A program made the translations under genes and the position numbers. From assembly GCA_964016885.1 (NCBI GenBank), contig OZ024740.1:388802001-388866000 (forward strand): 64,000 bases of DNA, read 5' to 3'. Positions 4,702-57,355 of the stretch are shown piece after piece. Position 1 is the stretch's first letter. Each line of letters begins with the position of its first letter. The DNA is from Eledone cirrhosa. Taxonomy: Eukaryota. The notes under the pieces were generated by a model. It ran no database searches and was not told where the DNA came from. It saw nothing but the letters and a program-made list of their open reading frames with translations.

Positions 4702-6455
4702 TTACCTTTTCGTTTCCTGGAGGTCGGGTTGTTCGACCTCCATATCCAGATTGGTGGTGTTTGGGGATGGAGGGAAGCCTTTTAGCAGGACACGGTTAAG
4801 GGGCTTTTGGCAAGTGGGGCCCACATCATGTGGGAAGTTCTCTTTTAAAGTTTCATACTGTAGGGTTGTTACCCTGATAAGTTTGAGGTTTGGGAGTGGT
4901 TCGTTGGTGAGGAAGGTTTTCCCTTCCGTTTGTACTGTGGGGTCCTTTCGGATAGTTTCCACCAGTTCTTTGTTTCTTGTTTTTATGTATGTGTAATGTG
5001 TTTTGTTTTTTATGTGTACTGTTTCTGTTTGTAGTTTTCTTTTTGTGGTTGGGATTTGTGATTGTGGTGGTGTGGGTGTGTGTTTTGTTGGTGAAGTGTT
5101 TGGTTGTGTTGGTGGTGATTGTATTGTTGGTGTGTTTGTCGTTTGTGGCGGTGTGTTTATGGTGGGGTTGGGTGTGTGCGTGTTTTCTGTAGATGTTTTT
5201 GTGTCTTTTTTGTCTCTTTATTGTTTTTTGGATTTTAGGGGTTCCTCTTCATTCTCACTTGGAGATGTAGAGTTTCCTGTGTCTGAGATTTCTGAATCAG
5301 GAGTAGGTGGGAGGGGTATCTTGTGTGGTGGACTGTTTGTGCAGGTGTTTGTGGAAGTATTTGACAGGGAAGGAGGAGGCAATGGAGGGTTTTTCAGTAG
5401 GATTTTTTGTGTGTGGTTGTCTCTGGTCTGTGGTAGTGTGGGAGTGGATGTTGCAGGTTTTTGTGTTGTGTTTGGTTTGGGGTGTTGATGTTGGGGTTTT
5501 GGTGTTGGTAATAACACCTTGTTTGTCCTCGGTTTGTTTAAGAGAGGGCAAAAGGCTTTTAAGTGTGTGATTTTCCCACATTTATGGCACTGAGATCTTT
5601 TCCTCTCCACTAAAATGGAGATGACATCTTCAGGATGCAGCGTAGGATCCACCATATGTTGACCTCTGCTGGGATCCTGGTTATTTTTATTTTGTAGGAT
5701 CTTCTTCCCATGAATGTGGGGAAGAAGATGTGGTGATCCGTTTTTATTGGGTGAACCGAGTGTTTTTGTGCCAGAGTTTCGCTCTTAAAGAGCACTGACA
5801 CACTTCCATACTGTTTACCTCTTTGGAGGTATGCCACGTCTGGCTTGATATCTTTTAGTGCAGCTTCAATAGTGCTTGTTGGGAGCGTTATGGTTTTTTT
5901 GGTAGTGATGTCAACTGTTCTATAGATTAGTTTCTTTTTCTGTGTCATTTCTCTTATTTGTGGGGGGTATGTGTATGTGTGGGGTGTCTCCCTCAAACGT
6001 CACATAGCTGGAAGCTTCTTCCAAATATTGGGACTTTTGGGAAATGTCCATGGAGTAATATTTAAAATCCTGTTGCTTAGCAACTGTTGCTGCAAATGAA
6101 ATGTTGTTATTTTTGTTGGTGGTGGTGATGATGGTCTCATTCGTTATGTTGCCACTGATTCCTTTTGTTGTGTTGTTGTTGTTCTCATTTATTGTGTTGT
6201 TGTTCTTGTTGCTTGTGGTGGTGTTAGTATTTGCTACATATACTTCCTTCTGTGTGTGGATACATGTGACGTTTGTGACGTCAGGCGTGTTCAGTTGCTT
6301 ATAAGCAGCTGAAGCTTGTACCACTTCTAAATGTTGAGGCGATAATGTTGGCATTCCTTTGTCCATGTCTGCTACTACCTGCTGGTCAAGTAGGCATGGC
6401 TTTCCCTTCCCATCTTCTTGTATTGACAAAGAAGTAGGTGCTTTGCTTCGGCCAT
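4702..6455 (-). pseudogene. LINE ORF1 (gag-like, CCHC zinc knuckle), frameshifted
   Basis: ORFs 5920-6429, 5610-5996, 5218-5655 and 4702-4962 lie in series upstream of ORF2. CHKCGKITHLKAFC is a CX2CX4HX4C knuckle. Confidence 0.8.
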
Positions 6456-9414: not shown

Positions 9415-9564
9415 ATACATATATATATATATTTATGAATGTATATATAATGTATTTTGCAATACACTTTATGCTTAATTAAAAGCATTTTGAAGATCGT
9501 ATGCTATTGTTTTAGAGTAGTGACAAACTCACTTACTTTAATCTCAGCAAACAGGGGGAGATAA

Positions 9565-9610
9565 AGCCGACAAGGCCTTGTTTCTGCATTTTTTTATGCT
9601 TATCAAGGCT
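9565..9610 (-). ncRNA. Type I hammerhead ribozyme, U3-A8 core variant
   Basis: Minus strand reads agcc-UUGAUAA-gcau(A)n augc-a-GAAAC-aaggccuu-GUC-ggcu. Confidence 0.72.
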
Positions 9611-9738
9611 AACTACTCCCTCCCGTCTACTGAGATCACTGATGTTATATTCTTATAGAATTCTAGTAAATAATCAGGAACTGATTATACAGAGGGGTTG
9701 CCGGTCAGGCAGAAATTAAAAATTAGGAGGGAGTAGTT

Positions 9739-9784
9739 AGCCTTGATAAGCATCAAAAAATACAGAAACAAGGCCTTGTCGGCT
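9739..9784 (+). ncRNA. Type I hammerhead ribozyme, U3-A8 core variant
   Basis: agcc ttgataa gcatcaaaaaatac a gaaac aaggcctt gtc ggct; stem II is degraded in this copy. Confidence 0.65.
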
Positions 9785-10057
9785 TTATCTCCCCCTGTTT
9801 GCTGAGATTAAAGTGAGTTTGTCACTACTCTAAAACAATAACATACGGACTTCAAAATGCTTTTAATTAAGCATAAAGTGTATTGCAAAATACATTATAT
9901 ATACATTCATATATATATATGGCTATTTCAGAGCTCAAATTCTAATTTTTAATTTCTGCCTGACCGGCAACCGCTCTGTATAATCAGTTCCTGATTATTT
10001 ACTAGAATTCTATAAGAATATAACATCAGCGATCTCAGTAGATGGGAGGGAGTAGTT

Positions 10058-10104
10058 AGCCTTGATAAGCATAAAAAAAAAGCAGAAACAAGGTCTTGTC
10101 GGCT
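10058..10104 (+). ncRNA. Type I hammerhead ribozyme, U3-A8 core variant
   Basis: agcc ttgataa gc(...)gc a gaaac aaggtctt gtc ggct. Confidence 0.65.
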
Positions 10105-10271
10105 TTATCTCCCCCTGTTTGCTGAGATTAAAGTAAGTGAGTTTCTCACTACTCTAAAACAATAACATACGGTCTTCAAAATGCTTTTAATTAAGCATAA
10201 AGTGTATTGCAAAATACATTATATATACATTCATATATATATGGCTATTTCAGAGCTCCAATTCTAATATA

Positions 10272-10330
<59 letters not shown>

Positions 10331-31750: not shown

Positions 31751-32055
31751 ATACGATATACTAACAAATGGAAATTATATTTATAAAACCATATTTATTT
31801 CATTATACATATTTCAAGGACACCAAGTTAAATTATGGTGTGCTTTCATCAGATAAAATATAATATAGATCAGTTTTATAAATAAATATTGACATACCCT
31901 TAAAGAATGCGACCATTTCTGTTGGAAGCTCCCTGATCTATATTATATTTTATCTGATGAAAGCACACCATAATTTAACTTGGTGTCCTTGAAATATGTA
32001 TAATAAAATAAATATGGTTTTATAAATATAGTTTCCATTTGTTAATATATCGTAT
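31751..32055. mobile_element. Family C element: ~123-bp inverted arms, each with a hammerhead (31796-31860 minus; 31946-32010 plus)
   Basis: tattttat CUGAUGA aagcacacca..tggtgtcctt GAAA tatgta ta ataaaata. Arms 31751-31873 / 31933-32055; abuts (TA)n. Confidence 0.82.
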
Positions 32056-32258
32056 ATATATATATATATATGTAGATAAATCTACCAAAATATACGGTCG
32101 TGTCCAATTCATATGAAGAACTCAATGTAATCCAAATGTCATGAAAAGAGAAGATGCATTCAAAAATTTTCGATGAAAATCATAGGAAAACAGAGTCAAG
32201 ATAAATTAATAAAAACAATGAATAAAAACAAAGAACAAGTTCCTTATATTAAAAAATT

Positions 32259-32392
32259 CATCATTTTACGATCGTTTCTAGGATATATATGTGTGTTGGT
32301 ATGTATATCATATAGATCTATGTAAAAATATTATAAACTATCAGAAGAAATATACATACCCTCACATATACATGCTGTCTTCAGAAAGGATG
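32259..32392 (-). ncRNA. Hammerhead ribozyme with long stem II
   Basis: Inverted counterpart of 33101-33234. Confidence 0.7.
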
Positions 32393-33100
32393 AGATTTGT
32401 TTATTGAAAAAAACCAACATAGATTTAATATAATAGGTCTGATGGGAACAGGTTTTGAATTGACCAATAGAAAAGTAGTCCTTAGAAGGTATCGGTATAT
32501 TCTTTAAAGAAGTTCCCAAGTATTGTTTTTCCATTGTAATATGGATAATGGACAAGAAAGAGAGCTCAACTATATATATAGGGAGTCATAAAATTATGTA
32601 TATATATATATATAAAAAATGTATATTAAAATATGAATACCCGTATAAAATTAGGATGTAGATAAATCTACCATTTTTAATAACATCTAATTCTTATTTA
32701 TCACATCCATATGAATTAATATAAATGTATCCCTATAAGTATACCTATCAATTAATTTAATTTCTTGTTATAGATCTAGATTCCTTGTGGTTTAAATAAG
32801 ATTGGTATTTCTCACTAATACCCTTACTCTAAAATTTTACTTTCCTTCGTTTTTAACATTATTCTTTAATAACATCAAATTTTCGTGTACCCTTCACCGG
32901 CTTGACCTCTTTTCTTCCCGAAAGTATTCTTTTTCATTCAAAACATAAGTCTGCACTCCTCTACCCCTAAATTAAATTTCTACTACTACTATTCTATCAA
33001 CTAGACCTCTTATTACTTTTCTATTGGTCAATTCAAAACCTGTTCCCAAACAGACCTATTATTTTAAATCTTTGTTGGGTTTTATTCAATAAACAAATCT

Positions 33101-33234
33101 CATCATTTCTGAAGATAGCATATATATGTGAAGGTATGTAGATTTCCTCTGATAGTTTGTAATATTTTTACATAGATCTATATGATATATATACCAACAC
33201 ACATATATATCCTAGAAACGATCGTAAAATGATG
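33101..33234 (+). ncRNA. Hammerhead ribozyme with ~100-nt stem II
   Basis: catcattt CUGAAGA tagcatatatatgtg...cacatatatatccta GAAAC gatc GUA aaatgatg. Confidence 0.78.
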
Positions 33235-33288
33235 AATTTTTTAATATAAGGACTTGTTCTTTGTTTTTATTCATTGTTTTTATTAATT

Positions 33289-33486
<198 letters not shown>

Positions 33487-46157: not shown

Positions 46158-46399
46158 CATAATTACATTGTGTTGTTTATTATGTGTGGATATATATATA
46201 TATATATATATGTAGATAAATCTACCAAGAGTTTACGGTAGTGTCCAATCCGTATGAAGAACTCAATGTATTCCGGATATCATGGAAAGAAGAGATGTAA
46301 TGAAAATCCACTTTCGGTGAAAGATAAACGGTATACAGAGTCAAGATAAAATATTAAACAAATAATGAATAAACAATTCCTTATATTAAACAAAAAAAG

Positions 46400-46554
46400 T
46401 TCATTATTTAACGATCGTTTCTAGGGCATATATGTGTTATAATTGGTATGCATATTCAACAGATCTATGTACAAAATTATACAAAATTATACAAATTATC
46501 AAGATTAAATATACATACCTAACACATATATACGCCGTCTTCAGAAATAATGAA
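46400..46554 (-). ncRNA. Hammerhead ribozyme with ~115-nt stem II (left arm)
   Basis: Reverse complement of 56828-56982. Confidence 0.8.
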
Positions 46555-47369
46555 GTATATTTATTGATAATAACAACAATTCAAAATATCAGTTCAAAAT
46601 TGACCAATGAAAACACAAAGGGTTAAAAGCAGTTCGGTGTGTGTATATACATGTAAAATCCTTACACATATTTTACAAAAATGTATGTATAACTTGTATA
46701 CGCATACTAAAAAGATGGATGCAAACACAAAATTTCAAGGTTAATATCTCTGTAAGCTTAAAATGCGCTGATAAGATGCGCATTGATACTTATGGAGTCA
46801 AGCATATAAATATATTTTTTCATACTCACACATATCAGTATAATCACACATACATGCGCGTATATGCATAAATATACACATAACCACGAACACACAAACA
46901 CACACACACCCCCACTCACATTTATATATGTGGATATAAAATCATAAGCACATGGATATTAAATCACTCACATAAAACACTGGCACACACATTTCAAGAT
47001 CAAGATACAGAAATTAGGTGGGAGGGGGGGAAGGGTCAGTATTCAATTGTCTGAGCAGACTGCCTAATATAAATGTATCTATAAATTAAGAAAAATAAAA
47101 AAATAAAACAATAAAATATAGTAAATATAATATAATATACATACACATACAGATATATACACATACATACATGTACGCGCACATAGAAATATTTACGCAT
47201 ACACACATAGACACATACATATACAGTCATACACACACATACACTTACACGAACATACACATACACATATATAACGATATATATATATACACACACACAC
47301 ACGCAACACATACACACATACACATATATATAAAAAATAAATAATAAAGATATATATCCATATATATAT

Positions 47370-47416
<47 letters not shown>

Positions 47417-47495
47417 CATACACATACATCTAAATATACATACACATACATACACACATACATGTACATACATGTACATACATATACGCACATCG

Positions 47496-47546
<51 letters not shown>

Positions 47547-47858
47547 TAGACATATAGATACATACACACACAACTTACATACACACATATATATATATAG
47601 ATGTACATTCATACATAGAATTAGATATATAATCATACATACATATGCACCTACTTATACTCATATATATAAATACATACGCTTCCATATATGCGTATAT
47701 ACATAAAAAACACTACAACCTCACCTAACTCAGACATACAAATAAAAATAATAATAAAAAAATAATAAAAAGGCATATGTATATACATACACACACGCAT
47801 TAATAGAGATATATATATATACACACATATATACACATATATATATATACATATATAT

Positions 47859-47899
<41 letters not shown>

Positions 47900-48014
47900 T
47901 ACACTCATACATATATATATATATATATATAAACATATATATCCACACACTCATACCACCATAAATACACATACAAACACCCACATATATATATATATAT
48001 ATATATATACACAC

Positions 48015-48053
<39 letters not shown>

Positions 48054-48343
48054 TAAAAAACAGACATGCACATATATATATATATATATTTTTTTACACT
48101 TATATATACACATATTATATACACATACACAACCTCACTTATACACATATACACATAAGTTATATTATAATAATAAAGAATAATATACATATATATATAT
48201 ACATATACATATATATATATATATATATATACATACATACATACACATACATACATACACATAAACATATACATACATAAATACACACATACGAATAAAG
48301 ACATATATTCACACATAGACACCTATATATATATATATATATC

Positions 48344-48395
<52 letters not shown>

Positions 48396-49526
48396 GACAC
48401 ATATACACACTCACATATATATATGTGTATGTGTGTGTGCGCACATACACATATATACACACACACATACAAACACACACAAACACATACATATGCATAC
48501 GTGCACACACACACACATATATCACATAGATACGAAGATAAACATATAAATAGAGAGACATACATATATATACAACACACATACACATACATACATACAC
48601 ACGCATATACATATACATACATATATATACATATATATATTCCTATATATACAAGCATACACATACATACACATATATACACATACATACACATATACAT
48701 ACAACACATTCACATACACATACATATATAATGCATATATATACATATATATACATACATATGTACACTCATATATACACACGCAATCTTACATTCATAT
48801 TTGCATGCGCATATATGTATTTTTATATTTAGATATAAATACCCAAACCTATATAGACACCTACCTACATATATATTCATACATAGACGCTTACAAATAC
48901 AGATGATAATAGTATGGGGGAAAGGGGGGGTTTGGAGAAGGGGATCAAAGTAAATATATGTTTCAAGAAACATATAATATTTTCCGTATCTTTATTCAAT
49001 GTATGTTCTTACATATTTTCAGTGCTAGGAAATACGACAAACAAGAACTAAGGCAAAATCTATGCATCTCAAAATAAATAAGTATACCATTAATCATATG
49101 TTAACTAAACCAAAGATAGTCAACATATTGATTTCTAAGGTGTAAATTAGTTAGGTTTATAATATTTGAAGCAGAATTTTGAAGTCAAACAGTAGTAGAT
49201 TATTAATTACAGTATAACTAAATTAAAGTTAATAACGTTATGGTATCAATATTAGGAAATGAATTTAGTAATAGGGAAAAGAAACCCAAATAAAAATAAA
49301 ATAAAGTATTACATCGGTAGTAGCATATAAATTATATGTTAACTAAATTAAAAATTATATATTTATTTCAATAGTATATGTTAATTAGTATATGTTAATT
49401 AGGTATACAATACATAAAGCAGATATTGTATTTCATCAATAGCATAATATAATTATATGCAAATAGAAATCAAAATTAATACGCATACATATACATATAC
49501 ATACACATACACATATACATACATAT

Positions 49527-49563
<37 letters not shown>

Positions 49564-50096
49564 TACACATATATACATACATACAGATACACATACACAC
49601 ACACACATACACATACACATATACATATACATATCTTTTTCAAAAAATTGCACAGAATATATTAACTAGGTATATATCCAAAACACATCCCATTCTATGA
49701 TTACATGACATTCTGCAATTCGTCTGTATAAGGATACTAATTTTAAGCAAATTAAAATTAAAATTTTTAGGTTGATTAAAACTAAAACCAAATAATAAAT
49801 ATATTTCCAAAATGTATATTAATTAGGTCTATAATACTAAAAATTATTTCTCTGTCATTGGATACACGATATTATTTTGTTATATTTTATCTGTAAAAGA
49901 GTTATAATAAAAGGTTTAAATAAATTAAAATTAATCTATAAATTAAATTACTAAGTATATATTAGTAATATTTAAAGGTTTTACACAATTTATGATTACA
50001 TAATATTTTATATTCTCATCTGTAATAAAATATTAATTAAATTAAATTTATAGGTTAACTAACATTTAAATTAAATTAATTTCTAGAATAATGTTA

Positions 50097-51704
50097 TTAA
50101 TTAGGTTTATAATATTTAAATGTTTTTTTTAGTTTATGATTACACGATATAATTAATTCCTGTCGTTTATTTAATAAGATATCCTTAGACTTCATTATTT
50201 CAAATAGTTCTTGGGAACATAATCTACATTCCTTTCTATTATTTTGATAAGGGGTGGCTCTTTTGAGCACACTCCAGGTCAAATCATATTTTATATTCTT
50301 ATTTTTATAACTATTGATTTTTTCTGCTAGAGATGTTGTATTAGCCAGTGCGGCATTTTTAAAACTATGCTTGTGGGTATTAAACCTTGTCTTAAAATTG
50401 TTAGAGGTAGCTCCTATATATGAGCAAATAGAATCTTTAGTTTTAACATTACATTTATAGACTATGTTGTTAACAAGACAATTCCCTTTTAATGGGCAGT
50501 TTGCTTTGTTTCTACAGTTACATCCTTTCGTTAATTCTGTATTTGAGGAGATATTATGGTTAATTTGATGTACTGGTGGTATACTTATGGTTTTCTTACA
50601 TTTATATCCATTATATGCACTTATATTTTGTTTTATGTTATTTGTTGTAGAGTATGAGAATTTAACTGTAGACCTATTTAAGATTTGATGGTATTTGTGG
50701 TTTGGCGGGAAGTTTTTCTCAAGGATATAAAAAAATTTTTTAGCAATATTATCCTTAACTTGTAAATTAAAAGGAGCATTATACCAAGTAACTCGTCTAT
50801 TACGGTTTCTATGTTGTTTATTATTTTTATTATTTTTATAGGTTGTATCGTGATTTTTACTAGGAGGATTAATGTTAATGATCTCACCACAACTATTTTT
50901 AGTTATATTTGTAGATTTAGGTGTTTTATCTTTTTTATTAGGAGTTTTATTATTAATATTTATTATAGTTGTATGATGAGTAGTTTTTTGAGGGTTACTA
51001 TACTTTATATTAGAAGATTTAGTATTTTGGGGTATATTGTGGGTGGCATTTAGGTGTGTACTTTTCATTTGGTGTTTGTTGGTAATATTATGCTGTATGC
51101 TTTCAGTATTTTTAGTAGAAGGTATATATTCTAATCTATTTTTGTGGCCACTTCTATCTAGAGCTTCATTATAAAAGGTCGCATTTTTATCAAATACATC
51201 TTGGTTAGAAGAAAGGTTAGAAATTCTAAGTGATATATTATATGCAAGGTTTTTAAGGATAGATTTAGGGTGATTAGATTGTGAGTGTATGTAATGTAAG
51301 TTTTGGTTAGGTTTATGGTAAGGTTGGTAGATACCCGTAGCTAAATCTAAAGTTATATCTAGGAAATTTACTACTTTACTTGTTTTTTCAAAAGTAATAT
51401 TAAGATTATAATAGTCTTTAAGGAAAGTTCTAATATGTTTTTTGTTTTTTTCGATTTCTGAAAGGCTAAGGTTGTTAGAAAGAAGAAGACAGTCATCACG
51501 ATATAAACCACCTTTGAGGTGGGGAAAAGAGGCATTTATGTTGAAAAGGAGAAAGAGGCCCACAAGATCAGTAATTTGGGCGGAATCGCTTGAACCCATA
51601 GTAATATCAAAAAGATTACTGTATGTGTTTCTGGTCCAGTATTCATTCTGAAATTCAATAAGTGTTAGTCTAGCATGTGTAATAATGTTAACATTATTAC
51701 ACAT
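50097..51704 (-). CDS. Penelope-like RT C-half + GIY-YIG endonuclease, 535 aa open frame (left arm, 5'-truncated)
   Basis: FDITMGSSDSAQITDLVG, GLYRDD, VNFLDITLDL, SNHP, CNCRNKANCPLKGNCL, IVYKC..YIGATSNNFKTRFNTH, CRLCSQE. Confidence 0.88.
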   Translation of the reverse strand: MCNNVNIITHARLTLIEFQNEYWTRNTYSNLFDITMGSSDSAQITDLVGLFLLFNINASFPHLKGGLYRDDCLLLSNNLSLSEIEKNKKHIRTFLKDYYNLNITFEKTSKVVNFLDITLDLATGIYQPYHKPNQNLHYIHSQSNHPKSILKNLAYNISLRISNLSSNQDVFDKNATFYNEALDRSGHKNRLEYIPSTKNTESIQHNITNKHQMKSTHLNATHNIPQNTKSSNIKYSNPQKTTHHTTIININNKTPNKKDKTPKSTNITKNSCGEIININPPSKNHDTTYKNNKNNKQHRNRNRRVTWYNAPFNLQVKDNIAKKFFYILEKNFPPNHKYHQILNRSTVKFSYSTTNNIKQNISAYNGYKCKKTISIPPVHQINHNISSNTELTKGCNCRNKANCPLKGNCLVNNIVYKCNVKTKDSICSYIGATSNNFKTRFNTHKHSFKNAALANTTSLAEKINSYKNKNIKYDLTWSVLKRATPYQNNRKECRLCSQELFEIMKSKDILLNKRQELIISCNHKLKKTFKYYKPN

Positions 51705-53282
51705 GCTAGACTAACACTTATTGAATTTCAGAATGAATACTGGACCAGAAACACATACAGTAATCTTTTTGATATTACTATGGGTTCAAGCGATTCCGCC
51801 CAAATTACTGATCTTGTGGGCCTCTTTCTCCTTTTCAACATAAATGCCTCTTTTCCCCACCTCAAAGGTGGTTTATATCGTGATGACTGTCTTCTTCTTT
51901 CTAACAACCTTAGCCTTTCAGAAATCGAAAAAAACAAAAAACATATTAGAACTTTCCTTAAAGACTATTATAATCTTAATATTACTTTTGAAAAAACAAG
52001 TAAAGTAGTAAATTTCCTAGATATAACTTTAGATTTAGCTACGGGTATCTACCAACCTTACCATAAACCTAACCAAAACTTACATTACATACACTCACAA
52101 TCTAATCACCCTAAATCTATCCTTAAAAACCTTGCATATAATATATCACTTAGAATTTCTAACCTTTCTTCTAACCAAGATGTATTTGATAAAAATGCGA
52201 CCTTTTATAATGAAGCTCTAGATAGAAGTGGCCACAAAAATAGATTAGAATATATACCTTCTACTAAAAATACTGAAAGCATACAGCATAATATTACCAA
52301 CAAACACCAAATGAAAAGTACACACCTAAATGCCACCCACAATATACCCCAAAATACTAAATCTTCTAATATAAAGTATAGTAACCCTCAAAAAACTACT
52401 CATCATACAACTATAATAAATATTAATAATAAAACTCCTAATAAAAAAGATAAAACACCTAAATCTACAAATATAACTAAAAATAGTTGTGGTGAGATCA
52501 TTAACATTAATCCTCCTAGTAAAAATCACGATACAACCTATAAAAATAATAAAAATAATAAACAACATAGAAACCGTAATAGACGAGTTACTTGGTATAA
52601 TGCTCCTTTTAATTTACAAGTTAAGGATAATATTGCTAAAAAATTTTTTTATATCCTTGAGAAAAACTTCCCGCCAAACCACAAATACCATCAAATCTTA
52701 AATAGGTCTACAGTTAAATTCTCATACTCTACAACAAATAACATAAAACAAAATATAAGTGCATATAATGCATATAAATGTAAGAAAACCATAAGTATAC
52801 CACCAGTACATCAAATTAACCATAATATCTCCTCAAATACAGAATTAACGAAAGGATGTAACTGTAGAAACAAAGCAAACTGCCCATTAAAAGGGAATTG
52901 TCTTGTTAACAACATAGTCTATAAATGTAATGTTAAAACTAAAGATTCTATTTGCTCATATATAGGAGCTACCTCTAACAATTTTAAGACAAGGTTTAAT
53001 ACCCACAAGCATAGTTTTAAAAATGCCGCACTGGCTAATACAACATCTCTAGCAGAAAAAATCAATAGTTATAAAAATAAGAATATAAAATATGATTTGA
53101 CCTGGAGTGTGCTCAAAAGAGCCACCCCTTATCAAAATAATAGAAAGGAATGTAGATTATGTTCCCAAGAACTATTTGAAATAATGAAGTCTAAGGATAT
53201 CTTATTAAATAAACGACAGGAATTAATTATATCGTGTAATCATAAACTAAAAAAAACATTTAAATATTATAAACCTAATTAA
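51675..53282 (+). CDS. Penelope-like RT C-half + GIY-YIG endonuclease, 535 aa open frame (right arm, 5'-truncated)
   Basis: Identical to the left-arm ORF except NAYK versus NGYK. RT fingers and motif A are absent. Confidence 0.88.
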   Translation: MCNNVNIITHARLTLIEFQNEYWTRNTYSNLFDITMGSSDSAQITDLVGLFLLFNINASFPHLKGGLYRDDCLLLSNNLSLSEIEKNKKHIRTFLKDYYNLNITFEKTSKVVNFLDITLDLATGIYQPYHKPNQNLHYIHSQSNHPKSILKNLAYNISLRISNLSSNQDVFDKNATFYNEALDRSGHKNRLEYIPSTKNTESIQHNITNKHQMKSTHLNATHNIPQNTKSSNIKYSNPQKTTHHTTIININNKTPNKKDKTPKSTNITKNSCGEIININPPSKNHDTTYKNNKNNKQHRNRNRRVTWYNAPFNLQVKDNIAKKFFYILEKNFPPNHKYHQILNRSTVKFSYSTTNNIKQNISAYNAYKCKKTISIPPVHQINHNISSNTELTKGCNCRNKANCPLKGNCLVNNIVYKCNVKTKDSICSYIGATSNNFKTRFNTHKHSFKNAALANTTSLAEKINSYKNKNIKYDLTWSVLKRATPYQNNRKECRLCSQELFEIMKSKDILLNKRQELIISCNHKLKKTFKYYKPN

Positions 53283-53815
53283 TAACATTATTCTAGAAAT
53301 TAATTTAATTTAAATGTTAGTTAACCTATAAATTTAATTTAATTAATATTTTATTACAGATGAGAATATAAAATATTATGTAATCATAAATTGTGAAAAA
53401 CCTTTAAATATTACTAATATATACTTAGTAATTTAATTTATAGATTAATTTTAATTTATTTAAACCTTTTATTATAACTCTTTTACAGATAAAATATAAC
53501 AAAATAATATCGTGTATCCAATGACAGAGAAATAATTTTTAGTATTATAGACCTAATTAATATACATTTTGGAAATATATTTATTATTTGGTTTTAGTTT
53601 TAATCAACCTAAAAATTTTAATTTTAATTTGCTTAAAATTAGTATCCTTATACAGACGAATTGCAGAATGTCATGTAATCATAGAATGGGATGTGTTTTG
53701 GATATATACCTAGTTAATATATTCTGTGCAATTTTTTGAAAAAGATATGTATATGTATATGTGTATGTGTATGTGTGTGTGTGTATGTGTATCTGTATGT
53801 ATGTATATATGTGTA

Positions 53816-53852
<37 letters not shown>

Positions 53853-54983
53853 ATATGTATGTATATGTGTATGTGTATGTATATGTATATGTATGCGTAT
53901 TAATTTTGATTTCTATTTGCATATAATTATATTATGCTATTGATGAAATACAATATCTGCTTTATGTATTGTATACCTAATTAACATATACTAATTAACA
54001 TATACTATTGAAATAAATATATAATTTTTAATTTAGTTAACATATAATTTATATGCTACTACCGATGTAATACTTTATTTTATTTTTATTTGGGTTTCTT
54101 TTCCCTATTACTAAATTCATTTCCTAATATTGATACCATAACGTTATTAACTTTAATTTAGTTATACTGTAATTAATAATCTACTACTGTTTGACTTCAA
54201 AATTCTGCTTCAAATATTATAAACCTAACTAATTTACACCTTAGAAATCAATATGTTGACTATCTTTGGTTTAGTTAACATATGATTAATGGTATACTTA
54301 TTTATTTTGAGATGCATAGATTTTGCCTTAGTTCTTGTTTGTCGTATTTCCTAGCACTGAAAATATGTAAGAACATACATTGAATAAAGATACGGAAAAT
54401 ATTATATGTTTCTTGAAACATATATTTACTTTGATCCCCTTCTCCAAACCCCCCCTTTCCCCCATACTATTATCATCTGTATTTGTAAGCGTCTATGTAT
54501 GAATATATATGTAGGTAGGTGTCTATATAGGTTTGGGTATTTATATCTAAATATAAAAATACATATATGCGCATGCAAATATGAATGTAAGATTGCGTGT
54601 GTATATATGAGTGTACATATGTATGTATATATATGTATATATATGCATTATATATGTATGTGTATGTGAATGTGTTGTATGTATATGTGTATGTATGTGT
54701 ATATATGTGTATGTATGTGTATGCTTGTATATATAGGAATATATATATGTATATATATGTATGTATATGTATATGCGTGTGTATGTATGTATGTGTATGT
54801 GTGTTGTATATATATGTATGTCTCTCTATTTATATGTTTATCTTCGTATCTATGTGATATATGTGTGTGTGTGTGCACGTATGCATATGTATGTGTTTGT
54901 GTGTGTTTGTATGTGTGTGTGTATATATGTGTATGTGCGCACACACACATACACATATATATATGTGAGTGTGTATATGTGTC

Positions 54984-55035
<52 letters not shown>

Positions 55036-55146
55036 GATATATATATATATATATAGGTGTCTATGTGTGAATATATGTCTTTATTCGTATGTGTGTATTT
55101 ATGTATGTATATGTTTATGTGTATGTATGTATGTGTATGTATGTAT

Positions 55147-55178
<32 letters not shown>

Positions 55179-55327
55179 GTATATATATATATGTATATTA
55201 TTCTTTATTATTATAATATAACTTATGTGTATATGTGTATAAGTGAGGTTGTGTATGTGTATATAATATGTGTATATATAAGTGTAAAAAAATATATATA
55301 TATATATATGTGCATGTCTGTTTTTTA

Positions 55328-55400
<73 letters not shown>

Positions 55401-55485
55401 GTGGGTGTTTGTATGTGTATTTATGGTGGTATGAGTGTGTGGATATATATGTTTATATATATATATATATATATGTATGAGTGTA

Positions 55486-55526
<41 letters not shown>

Positions 55527-55840
55527 ATATATATGTATATATATATATGTGTATATATGTGTGTGTATATATATATATCTCTATTAATGCGTGTGTGTAT
55601 GTATATACATATGCCTTTTTATTATTTTTTTATTATTATTTTTATTTGTATGTCTGAGTTAGGTGAGGTTGTAGTGTTTTTTATGTATATACGCATATAT
55701 GGAAGCGTATGTATTTATATATATGAGTATAAGTAGGTGCATATGTATGTATGATTATATATCTAATTCTATGTATGAATGTACATCTATATATATATAT
55801 GTGTGTATGTAAGTTGTGTGTGTATGTATCTATATGTCTA

Positions 55841-55889
<49 letters not shown>

Positions 55890-55968
55890 CGATGTGCGTA
55901 TATGTATGTACATGTATGTACATGTATGTGTGTATGTATGTGTATGTATATTTAGATGTATGTGTATG

Positions 55969-56009
<41 letters not shown>

Positions 56010-56827
56010 ATATATATATGGATATATATCTTTATTATTTATTTTTTATATATATGTGTATGTGTGTATGTGTTGCGTGTGTGTGTGTGTATATATATAT
56101 ATCTTTATATATGTGTATGTGTATGTTCGTGTAAGTGTATGTGTGTGTATGACTGTATATGTATGTGTCTATGTGTGTATGCGTAAATATTTCTATGTGC
56201 GCGTACATGTATGTATGTGTATATATCTGTATGTGTATGTATATTATATTATATTTACTATATTTTATTGTTTTATTTTTTTATTTTTCTTAATTTATAG
56301 ATACATTTATATTAGGCAGTCTGCTCAAACAATTGAATACTGACCCTTCCCCCCCCCCTCCCACCTAATTTCTGTATCTTGATCTTGAAATGTGTGTGCC
56401 AGTGTTTTATGTGAGTGATTTAATATCCATGTGCTTATGATTTTATATCCACATATATAAATGTGAGTGGGGGTGTGTGTGTGTTTGTGTGTTCGTGGTT
56501 ATGTGTATATTTATGCATATACGCGCATGTATGTGTGATTATACTGATATGTGTGAGTATGAAAAAATATATTTATATGCTTGACTCCATAAGTATCAAT
56601 GCGCATCTTATCAGCGCATTTTAAGCTTACAGAGATATTAACCTTGAAATTTTGTGTTTGCATCCATCTTTTTAGTATGCGTATACAAGTTATACATACA
56701 TTTTTGTAAAATATGTGTAAGGATTTTACATGTATATACACACACCGAACTGCTTTTAACCCTTTGTGTTTTCATTGGTCAATTTTGAACTGATATTTTG
56801 AATTGTTGTTATTATCAATAAATATAC

Positions 56828-56982
56828 TTCATTATTTCTGAAGACGGCGTATATATGTGTTAGGTATGTATATTTAATCTTGATAATTTGTATAATTTTG
56901 TATAATTTTGTACATAGATCTGTTGAATATGCATACCAATTATAACACATATATGCCCTAGAAACGATCGTTAAATAATGAA
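56828..56982 (+). ncRNA. Hammerhead ribozyme with ~115-nt stem II (right arm)
   Basis: ttcattattt CUGAAGA cggcgtatatatgtgtta...taacacatatatgcc cta GAAAC gatc GUU aaataatgaa; 10-bp stem I and palindromic loop III. Confidence 0.82.
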
Positions 56983-57115
56983 CTTTTTTTGTTTAATATA
57001 AGGAATTGTTTATTCATTATTTGTTTAATATTTTATATATATATATATATATGTCCCAAGGCTCTGAAACCATCAACACCAAAAACACAGAGCTGGCATA
57101 TCTAAGAACTGACTA

Positions 57116-57171
57116 ACTGCCTGATGAGGTCATAGCCATTCAATGGCTATCATTGAAATATATATAGCAGT
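57116..57171 (+). ncRNA. Minimal hammerhead in a ~165-bp element (57053-57220) between TA tracts
   Basis: actgc CUGAUGA ggtcatagccat tca atggctatcatt GAAA tatata ta gcagt. Confidence 0.8.
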
Positions 57172-57355
57172 AAATAAAGGATTATGAGTTCATGCAATTG
57201 ATTTATGTTTCGTCACTATACATATATATAAGTACAATGACATGAAACTCGAAAAATATGGGAATAAACTTACATGAAGATGGTACAAACTGATTCCTCT
57301 CTATATACTGCTGTTTCAGAGTTGACGGGAAGTAATGCCAATTACCATTATTAAA

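Follow-up and report, generated by a model that had tools for sequence, protein, structure and literature searches.

Introduction

In LINE-1 twin priming, both target ends prime on one RNA, and the resulting pieces, which come from different parts of that RNA, meet head to head at a junction with a short overlap. Here we describe an insertion of a Penelope-like retroelement in Eledone cirrhosa in which the two head-to-head arms instead cover the same sequence, so that the RNA would have been read twice. The locus is a 10.7-kb palindrome at positions 46346-57036 of a 64-kb stretch of the genome (G000:C1:388802001-388866000; "the window" below means this whole stretch). We consider it probable that it represents one young insertion into (TA)n, composed of two 5'-truncated copies made by two reverse transcriptions that were primed from both cut target ends, probably on the same RNA, and that shared a stop.

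Parts of this arrangement are familiar. In Penelope-like elements, an inverted, 5'-truncated partner and a tail on one side belong to the standard picture. Craig et al. (2021; PMC8557442) define the Hydra clade by the motifs DKT and RWK, a CxCx5C linker and a CxxC together with a CxH around the conserved E and N, with no CCHH; the supplement lists Hydra-1_Obim from Octopus bimaculoides and Penelope-13_HM, the 5' end of the latter carrying an inverted copy that is 5'-truncated, and the paper names the origin of the tandem and inverted structures and of the tail as an unresolved question. Arkhipova et al. (2013; PMC3846280) report head-to-head pseudo-LTR copies with an optional, one-sided tail and a palindrome at the inverted junction, as found here, but with arms of ~200 bp rather than kilobases, and propose self-priming on an antisense template, whereas the census below favours priming from both target ends. 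The PAc Poseidon element of the green anole belongs to a different clade, and the main text of the study concerned (Frangieh et al., 2024; PMC11167929) is silent on inverted insertions. According to that study, the element cleaves and extends both strands of an AT-rich target, uses two internal starts that bound the tail and is predicted to act as a dimer, which would be enough for the product seen here.

In a literature search that left most subscription papers and the supplements of PMC11167929 and PMC3846280 outside its range, we found no proposal of both-end priming on one RNA as the origin of such insertions; the literature searched, likewise mostly without subscription papers, contained neither a strict tailed/tailless pairing nor multi-kilobase spacer-less cases. 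The available parts of PMC12910113 and of bioRxiv 10.64898/2026.07.22.740005 hold nothing on inverted insertions.

Results

Structure of the locus

Comparison of the window with itself returned the inverted repeat 46346-57036 as a single BLAST alignment at 99.5% identity, its structure being read from the assembly sequence; genome searches were made over the 3.0-Gb assembly. Self-BLAST and the alignment of one arm against the other both agree with the initial annotation of this DNA, which had described arms of ~5.35 kb with no spacer and few substitutions, a ~135-bp excess on the left, unrelated flanks and (TA)n at both ends. The features are listed below, with the strand where there is one and the evidence in brackets; the frames encode parts of a reverse transcriptase (RT), and pseudo-LTR denotes the pseudo-long terminal repeat.

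46190..46211: left (TA)n target (sequence)
46211..46345, minus strand: 135-bp tail, present on the left arm only, which follows the pseudo-LTR in tandem units (comparison with other copies)
46346..51689, minus strand: left arm, a 5'-truncated element copy with its 3' end outward (self-BLAST, arm alignment)
46400..46554, minus strand: type I hammerhead motif of the left pseudo-LTR, mirror of the right one (motif search)
50097..51689, minus strand: left open frame of 530 amino acids from the axis, with the second half of the RT, a linker and a GIY-YIG-type endonuclease
51688..51691: axis, TTAA common to both arms; the surrounding 32-mer is single in the genome
51690..53282, plus strand: right open frame of 530 amino acids, with RT part, linker and endonuclease (motifs; protein Atlas look-alikes with RT and GIY-YIG families)
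Plus strand, within the right frame: MGSSD at 51780, YRDD at 51876, CxCx5C linker at 52857, CxxC at 53151 and CxH at 53235
51690..57036, plus strand: right arm, a 5'-truncated element copy with its tailless 3' end outward and a microsatellite-rich 3' region of 3.7 kb
56828..56982, plus strand: type I hammerhead motif of the right pseudo-LTR (motif search, folding)
57034..57052: right (TA)n target (sequence)

The axis (gtt/aac at 51689/51690) separates the left arm (46346-51689) from the right arm (51690-57036), and for 1081 bp outward from it the two pair without mismatch in the arm-to-arm alignment. Over their whole length they differ by four substitutions (50608/52771, 49983/53396, 47275/56104 and 47051/56328) and seven indels; six, of 2-6 bp, lie in dinucleotide runs, and the seventh, of 3 bp, in a C/G run. 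The same four substitution pairs had been annotated at the outset, with two left coordinates off by one that are corrected here to 50608 and 47275. The absence of a spacer also stands but can be refined, as the central TTAA (51688-51691) is natural element sequence common to both arms, and the "zero spacer" is a self-complementary overlap of 4 bp. Numbered along the 6563-bp unit of a longer natural copy elsewhere in the genome (coordinate E), the axis falls at E1003-1006, where the natural copy has TTAA and upstream of which its sequence departs from the mirror image. The extra 135 bp of the left arm (46211-46345) is present as element sequence in other copies and is likely, by analogy with the starts reported in PMC11167929, to be the stretch between two reverse-transcription start sites.

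At both outer ends the palindrome adjoins (TA)n, inside which a target-site duplication is unreadable. Each flank is part of a different repeat family, and the two families are not joined in the 5 + 5 other copies examined, so these paralogues yield no empty site. Amplification of the whole palindrome as a unit was rejected, the axis 32-mer being found once in the genome.

One tailed and one tailless end

The family is young and abundant. A search with the open reading frame (ORF) gave 2501 genome candidates, and the 40 that were scored were nearly all full length with ~100% identity; exact genome matches numbered 673 for the 29-mer adjoining the axis, 474 for a pseudo-LTR 28-mer and 1 for the axis 32-mer. 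A hand-compiled census covered all the loci represented in the first 100 of these 474 pseudo-LTR matches (all of C1, and C2 to 186.6 Mb), 55 loci in total. Thirty-nine are two-armed, head to head, with both outer ends seen, and 12 are single-armed; four were left out (an arm broken by an assembly gap, a short truncated partner, an internal inverted fragment and a complex tandem).

All 39 two-armed census loci combine one end at E6563, with the tail, and one end at E6426, without it. Among 16 further two-armed loci, 15 are mixed in the same way and one is tailless at both ends, while a seventeenth showed one end only. Mixed ends thus occur in 54 of the 55 two-armed loci with both ends seen and two tailed ends in none, against about half mixed if the ends were used independently. 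One tailed plus one tailless end is the rule of this family.

Many single-armed copies (for example L013-L016, L061, L073, L075 and L077) have on their 5' side a TA expansion, up to 2 kb long and patterned, in which short variants recur; it looks as if the second target end had been lengthened by slippage.

Arm lengths and junctions

Nearly half of the census pairs (19/39) are miniature palindromes ("minis") of ~550 bp, in which both arms begin near E6220 (window position 56831) and, in 12 of the 19, within 10 bp of each other. A pattern for the centre of the minis gave 281/283 matches genome-wide, with variable centres of 0-12 nucleotides (nt); by eye, its first 100 rows comprise 59 places, 17 of them in the perfect form. 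The perfect, zero-spacer centre, with an overlap of only 2 bp, occurs at 154 places genome-wide, and the three examined are all tailed/tailless minis.

The other 20 census pairs are long: in 12 of them the tailed arm extends further 5', in six the tailless arm does, and two are symmetric. In four of the six with a longer tailless arm, there is no internal tail in the long arm, and the 5' part of that arm is missing from the short one. Since the tail is found only on the short arm and the 5' part only on the long arm, neither arm of these four loci can be a copy of the other.

Three patterns, with a duplicated locus and unequal tandem loci omitted, yielded 19 long pairs in which both arms start in the ORF region, before E2340. 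Their offsets are 0, 4, 5, 5 and 9 bp, and then 134-1695 bp. Offsets of at most 9 bp are thus seen in 5 of 19 pairs, or 4 of 18 without the window, where permutation predicts 0.23 (P 2e-5). Near-zero offsets therefore form a recurring class, and the palindrome cannot be kept as the oddity that a spacer-less structure had first seemed to be, given the 154 perfect mini centres and the 4-9 bp offsets of four other long pairs. The unpaired centres of the other near-symmetric loci measure 7, 2, 6 and 233 bp, the last being a templated insert. Most junctions show overlaps of 0-5 bp or short templated inserts, and a few junction calls within microsatellite regions are imprecise.

Several individual loci deserve description. 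At C2:47820300 (L036, ~4970-5200), a symmetric 9-kb palindrome has at its centre a 228-bp insert of short repeats templated from both arm ends. At C2:36290000-36331500 (L055-L059), a 39-kb inverted repeat has three tandem units per arm and a 436-bp spacer; its six units lie 0-4 differences apart per ~3500 sites across both arms, as if one template had been copied several times during a single event. At a single site, one variant is common to the outer left and middle right unit, which are not mirror positions, a point in favour of priming from both ends. One arm at C1:203386200 (L029) ends at E1003-1006, as in the window, and C1:52414500 and C1:113213500 are truncated at E441-446; such recurrent positions may be pause sites or RNA break sites. 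Finally, C1:341501900 and C1:342255300 (L045-L048), 750 kb apart, carry the same palindrome with a 6-bp centre and the same flanks at 98.3% identity over 13.8 kb, and are either a segmental duplication or a retained haplotype.

Common origin and age of the arms

The arms of a locus share an origin. In 27 arm pairs, we counted 0-14 callable differences between the arms, no more than to the nearest other locus in 24 of 27 and fewer than the median of other loci in all 27. Across the loci compared, 66 alleles are common to both arms of one locus and absent elsewhere, and 57 are private to one arm. ADAR-edited templates were considered and rejected, as A-to-G changes are not in excess among the 66 shared alleles (A>G 9, T>C 12, G>A 12, C>T 9).

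In the window, 3 of 2740 callable sites distinguish one arm from the other, against 3-4 differences to the two nearest copies and 19.5 to the median copy; the arms also share one allele, a C where 67 of 67 other copies have T. Each of the four substitutions between the arms is a new allele. Three of these alleles lie on the left arm and the fourth on the right, all outside homopolymers and absent from 59/59, 61/61, 65/65 and 68/69 other copies. Four changes over ~5340 bp (0.075%) put this copy among the youngest, although RT errors or gene conversion would shift any date.

Clade assignment

The longer natural copy has an 830-amino-acid stop-to-stop frame in which, by eye, the RT motifs DIDNYY, MGSSD, YRDD and FLD and a C-terminal VY..YIG endonuclease can be read. 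Pfam scans gave no significant match for the 530-amino-acid frame, the 830-amino-acid frame or the endonuclease part. In the protein Atlas, feature scores of 0.96-0.99 link the protein to clusters in which RVT_1, GIY-YIG or HTH_animal is present in some of the members. A single ORF encoding an RT plus an endonuclease of the GIY-YIG type at its C terminus, pseudo-LTRs from partial tandems, an inverted 5'-truncated partner and a one-sided tail identify a Penelope-like element with endonuclease. The initial reading as a Penelope element, inserted once and recently into (TA)n with an inverted structure of known kind, is upheld.

Judged by its sequence motifs, the family is a Hydra-clade Penelope-like element. 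The full frame has DKT for DKG at amino acid 132, RWR as a conservative variant at the RWK position and the linker CNCRNKTNC (CxCx5C) at amino acid 690; its sole CxxC (amino acid 788) and sole CxH (amino acid 816) both lie outside the endonuclease core, and there is no CCHH. TA repeats stand at nearly all outer ends examined of other copies, and a type I hammerhead is predicted in the pseudo-LTR. Neptune, Nematis and Poseidon were rejected for the lack of a CCHH (no CxxC within the endonuclease core) and for a linker of the CxCx5C type rather than the CX2-5CxxC type of Neptune and Nematis, and Naiad and Chlamys, with their N-terminal endonuclease, because the endonuclease here is C-terminal.

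Set against the description of the clade in PMC8557442, the family agrees in the C-terminal endonuclease, DKT, the RW-type motif, CxCx5C, CxxC with CxH, absence of CCHH, the type I hammerhead, (TA)n targets and the inverted 5'-truncated partner. It departs from that account in its 6.56-kb unit, as Hydra units are generally <3 kb, a difference caused by the 3.7-kb microsatellite-rich 3' region; in a tail of 135 bp instead of 30-40 bp; in RWR for RWK; in a hammerhead stem II region of ~116 nt; and in arms of equal length at this locus.

Both 530-codon frames open at the axis and point outward. The first RT aspartate motif, at amino acid 269 of the full frame, lies upstream of the axis and is missing from both, so each arm is defective. 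With frames that begin past this motif and no pseudo-LTR upstream of them, the palindrome was dead on arrival.

Hammerhead motifs and neighbouring structures

The predicted hammerhead of the right arm consists of a 9-10 bp stem I, CUGAAGA, a long stem II, GAAA and a palindromic stem III, with a predicted cut after 56972; the strong-stop point of the family, 56831, lies at the start of stem I. Its folding z score is -7.75 against 200 shuffles, and a related copy within the window has a compensatory change in stem I. The long stem II and palindromic stem III fit the dimer-type hammerhead motifs described in PMC4209133. Rfam returned no hammerhead among the matches listed (150 of 192 rows); its microRNA-like matches were rejected, as mir-279 at the axis scored 55.1 bits, below the cut-off of 56, and those at the axis and in microsatellites are hairpin or repeat noise.

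Other structures of this kind occur in the window. A high-copy repeat of another family (57053-57230; 632 genome candidates, usually preceded by TA repeats) begins directly after the right (TA)n and contains a minimal type I hammerhead with its core at 57121 and a palindromic stem III. An older head-to-head pair of a related subfamily at 32200-33300 has the same long-stem hammerhead, with a partial tail at one end and none at the other. Small inverted structures between TA repeats at 31751-32055, with a hammerhead-like core at 31954, and at 9425-10276 are likely to be minis of other Penelope-like families.

Discussion

Several lines of evidence lead us to regard the locus as very probably real DNA. 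A fold-back long read, an artefact described in PMC12870357, could have doubled a single 5.4-kb copy during library preparation or assembly, and the records listed contain no read or contig that bridges the axis; the loose ends listed at 51688 all show natural upstream sequence, as expected from hundreds of longer copies. The tables behind this listing leave out 715 pieces and 40 loose ends, and the thousands-fold depth of the family masks a single-copy branch. A fold-back, however, would repeat one flank and one end, whereas the flanks here differ and the ends differ as in 53 other loci, and new substitutions outside homopolymers are found on both arms (three left, one right). Part of the unique right flank is present, with 0-2 differences, in short-read contigs from one sample, and a run search with the right flank listed three runs of one sample containing 59-65% of its words, with no RNA run among the holders listed. 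A short-read contig from run X2 joins an antisense pseudo-LTR to the sense ORF at 51863, so head-to-head junctions of the family exist independently of long reads. On balance, we give the artefact only a slim chance.

The in vitro behaviour of the anole element leads us, by analogy, to infer that both target ends primed on one RNA; the common stop would be a broken or truncated RNA end, and the complementary DNA (cDNA) strands would have been joined through the TTAA overlap. The endonuclease would cut both target strands in (TA)n, and each DNA end would prime one cDNA, one starting at the tail end, E6563, and the other at E6426, 135 nt further in, probably on the same RNA. On the 5' part of the RNA, both RTs would run off near E6220 and produce minis; on a read-through or re-engaged template they would enter the ORF, where independent stops would give large offsets and a halt of both at one shared RNA end, broken or truncated, a near-zero offset. 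The two cDNA ends would then be joined via overlaps of 0-5 bp, TTAA at this axis.

The initial annotation had named priming from both target ends and cDNA snap-back as alternatives. In snap-back, a tail-primed cDNA would stop after TTAA, fold with a 4-nt loop and copy itself; its far end would be cut, or come to a halt, at the tailless site and then be joined to the remaining end of the target. This would account directly for the identical 5' ends and the close match of the arms, near-zero offsets do form a distinct class, the 2-7 nt unpaired centres of other long symmetric loci could be hairpin loops, and PMC3846280 reads junction palindromes as self-priming. Yet snap-back cannot make the four loci with a tailed short arm and a tailless long arm, so that a second mechanism would be needed anyway. 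At the axis, the cDNA also lacks a strong hairpin (-0.4 kcal/mol, where ORF 40-mers have a median of -0.8), the commonest mini centre would be a 2-nt loop, too short for a hairpin where PMC7999016 gives 4-6 unpaired bases, and kilobase offsets with 0-5 bp overlaps or templated inserts resemble end joining. Because neither arm can copy the other in those four loci, where the tailed arm is the shorter one and the long arm is tailless, both-end priming fits better and snap-back is unneeded; we regard snap-back as rather unlikely. It is also conceivable that an initially asymmetric inverted insertion was later deprived of its spacer when a hairpin or cruciform broke and was repaired, or that the sequence of one arm was replaced by that of its partner. 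Long inverted repeats tend to break (PMC7999016), and the 228-bp templated insert at the centre of one symmetric locus is of a kind that repair can leave. Near-zero offsets, however, are not confined to older pairs but also occur in the youngest, with 0-3 arm differences, and minis reach zero spacer at a fixed site. In mouse transgenes, known processing reportedly tends to add asymmetry rather than remove it, which counts further against symmetrisation, and we consider this course of events very improbable.

A number of observations weigh against priming from both ends on one RNA. At this locus, snap-back with a 4-nt TTAA loop and a cut at the tailless site would yield the same sequence, and the distance between the window arms is not below that to the two nearest copies, so that "same RNA" here amounts to one shared allele. 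Shared alleles could also arise by arm-to-arm gene conversion or from an unsampled source locus, and one pair has arms 14 differences apart. The pairing of ends has its exception in the locus without a tail at both ends, 12 of the 55 census loci are single-armed, and the 19 long pairs are no random sample. PMC11167929 reports no strand difference in start site, so a strict pairing of one each lacks an in vitro parallel, and the missing axis-bridging record noted above also belongs here.

Priming from both ends nevertheless suggests a wider picture, which we offer tentatively and at slightly less than even confidence. An asymmetric pair of RTs on one RNA may prime both target ends, with a subunit at either end of the tail, and read the RNA twice; every complete event would then be an inverted repeat with exactly one tail, a shared run-off would give a spacer-less palindrome of up to 11 kb, and the germ line would keep such palindromes until their arms diverge. 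Long spacer-less palindromes are breakage-prone in model organisms (PMC7999016). In this family, pairs with centres of 2-7 bp persist with 1-7 arm differences, and one was duplicated together with its flanks, its centre kept. Both pseudo-LTRs of the present locus lie at the outer ends and point away from the axis, so the dsRNA hairpin envisaged at the outset as a potential ADAR or siRNA substrate would need a foreign or antisense promoter; a scan of 13 long frames recognised only LINE-type RT, endonuclease and one weak zinc finger and no host exon, exons not being otherwise searched for.

Taken alone, the locus is a dead insertion of a type already known. Its interest lies in being the extreme case of a young family, which makes the question raised in PMC8557442 testable; the near-strict pairing of ends, the arms that cannot be copies of one another and the near-zero class lead to specific predictions that an in vitro assay could address. 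The family is moreover a natural series of dated palindromes, from 0.4 to 39 kb and with spacers from 0 to kilobases, in which it can be asked whether the animal germ line purges the spacer-less ones.

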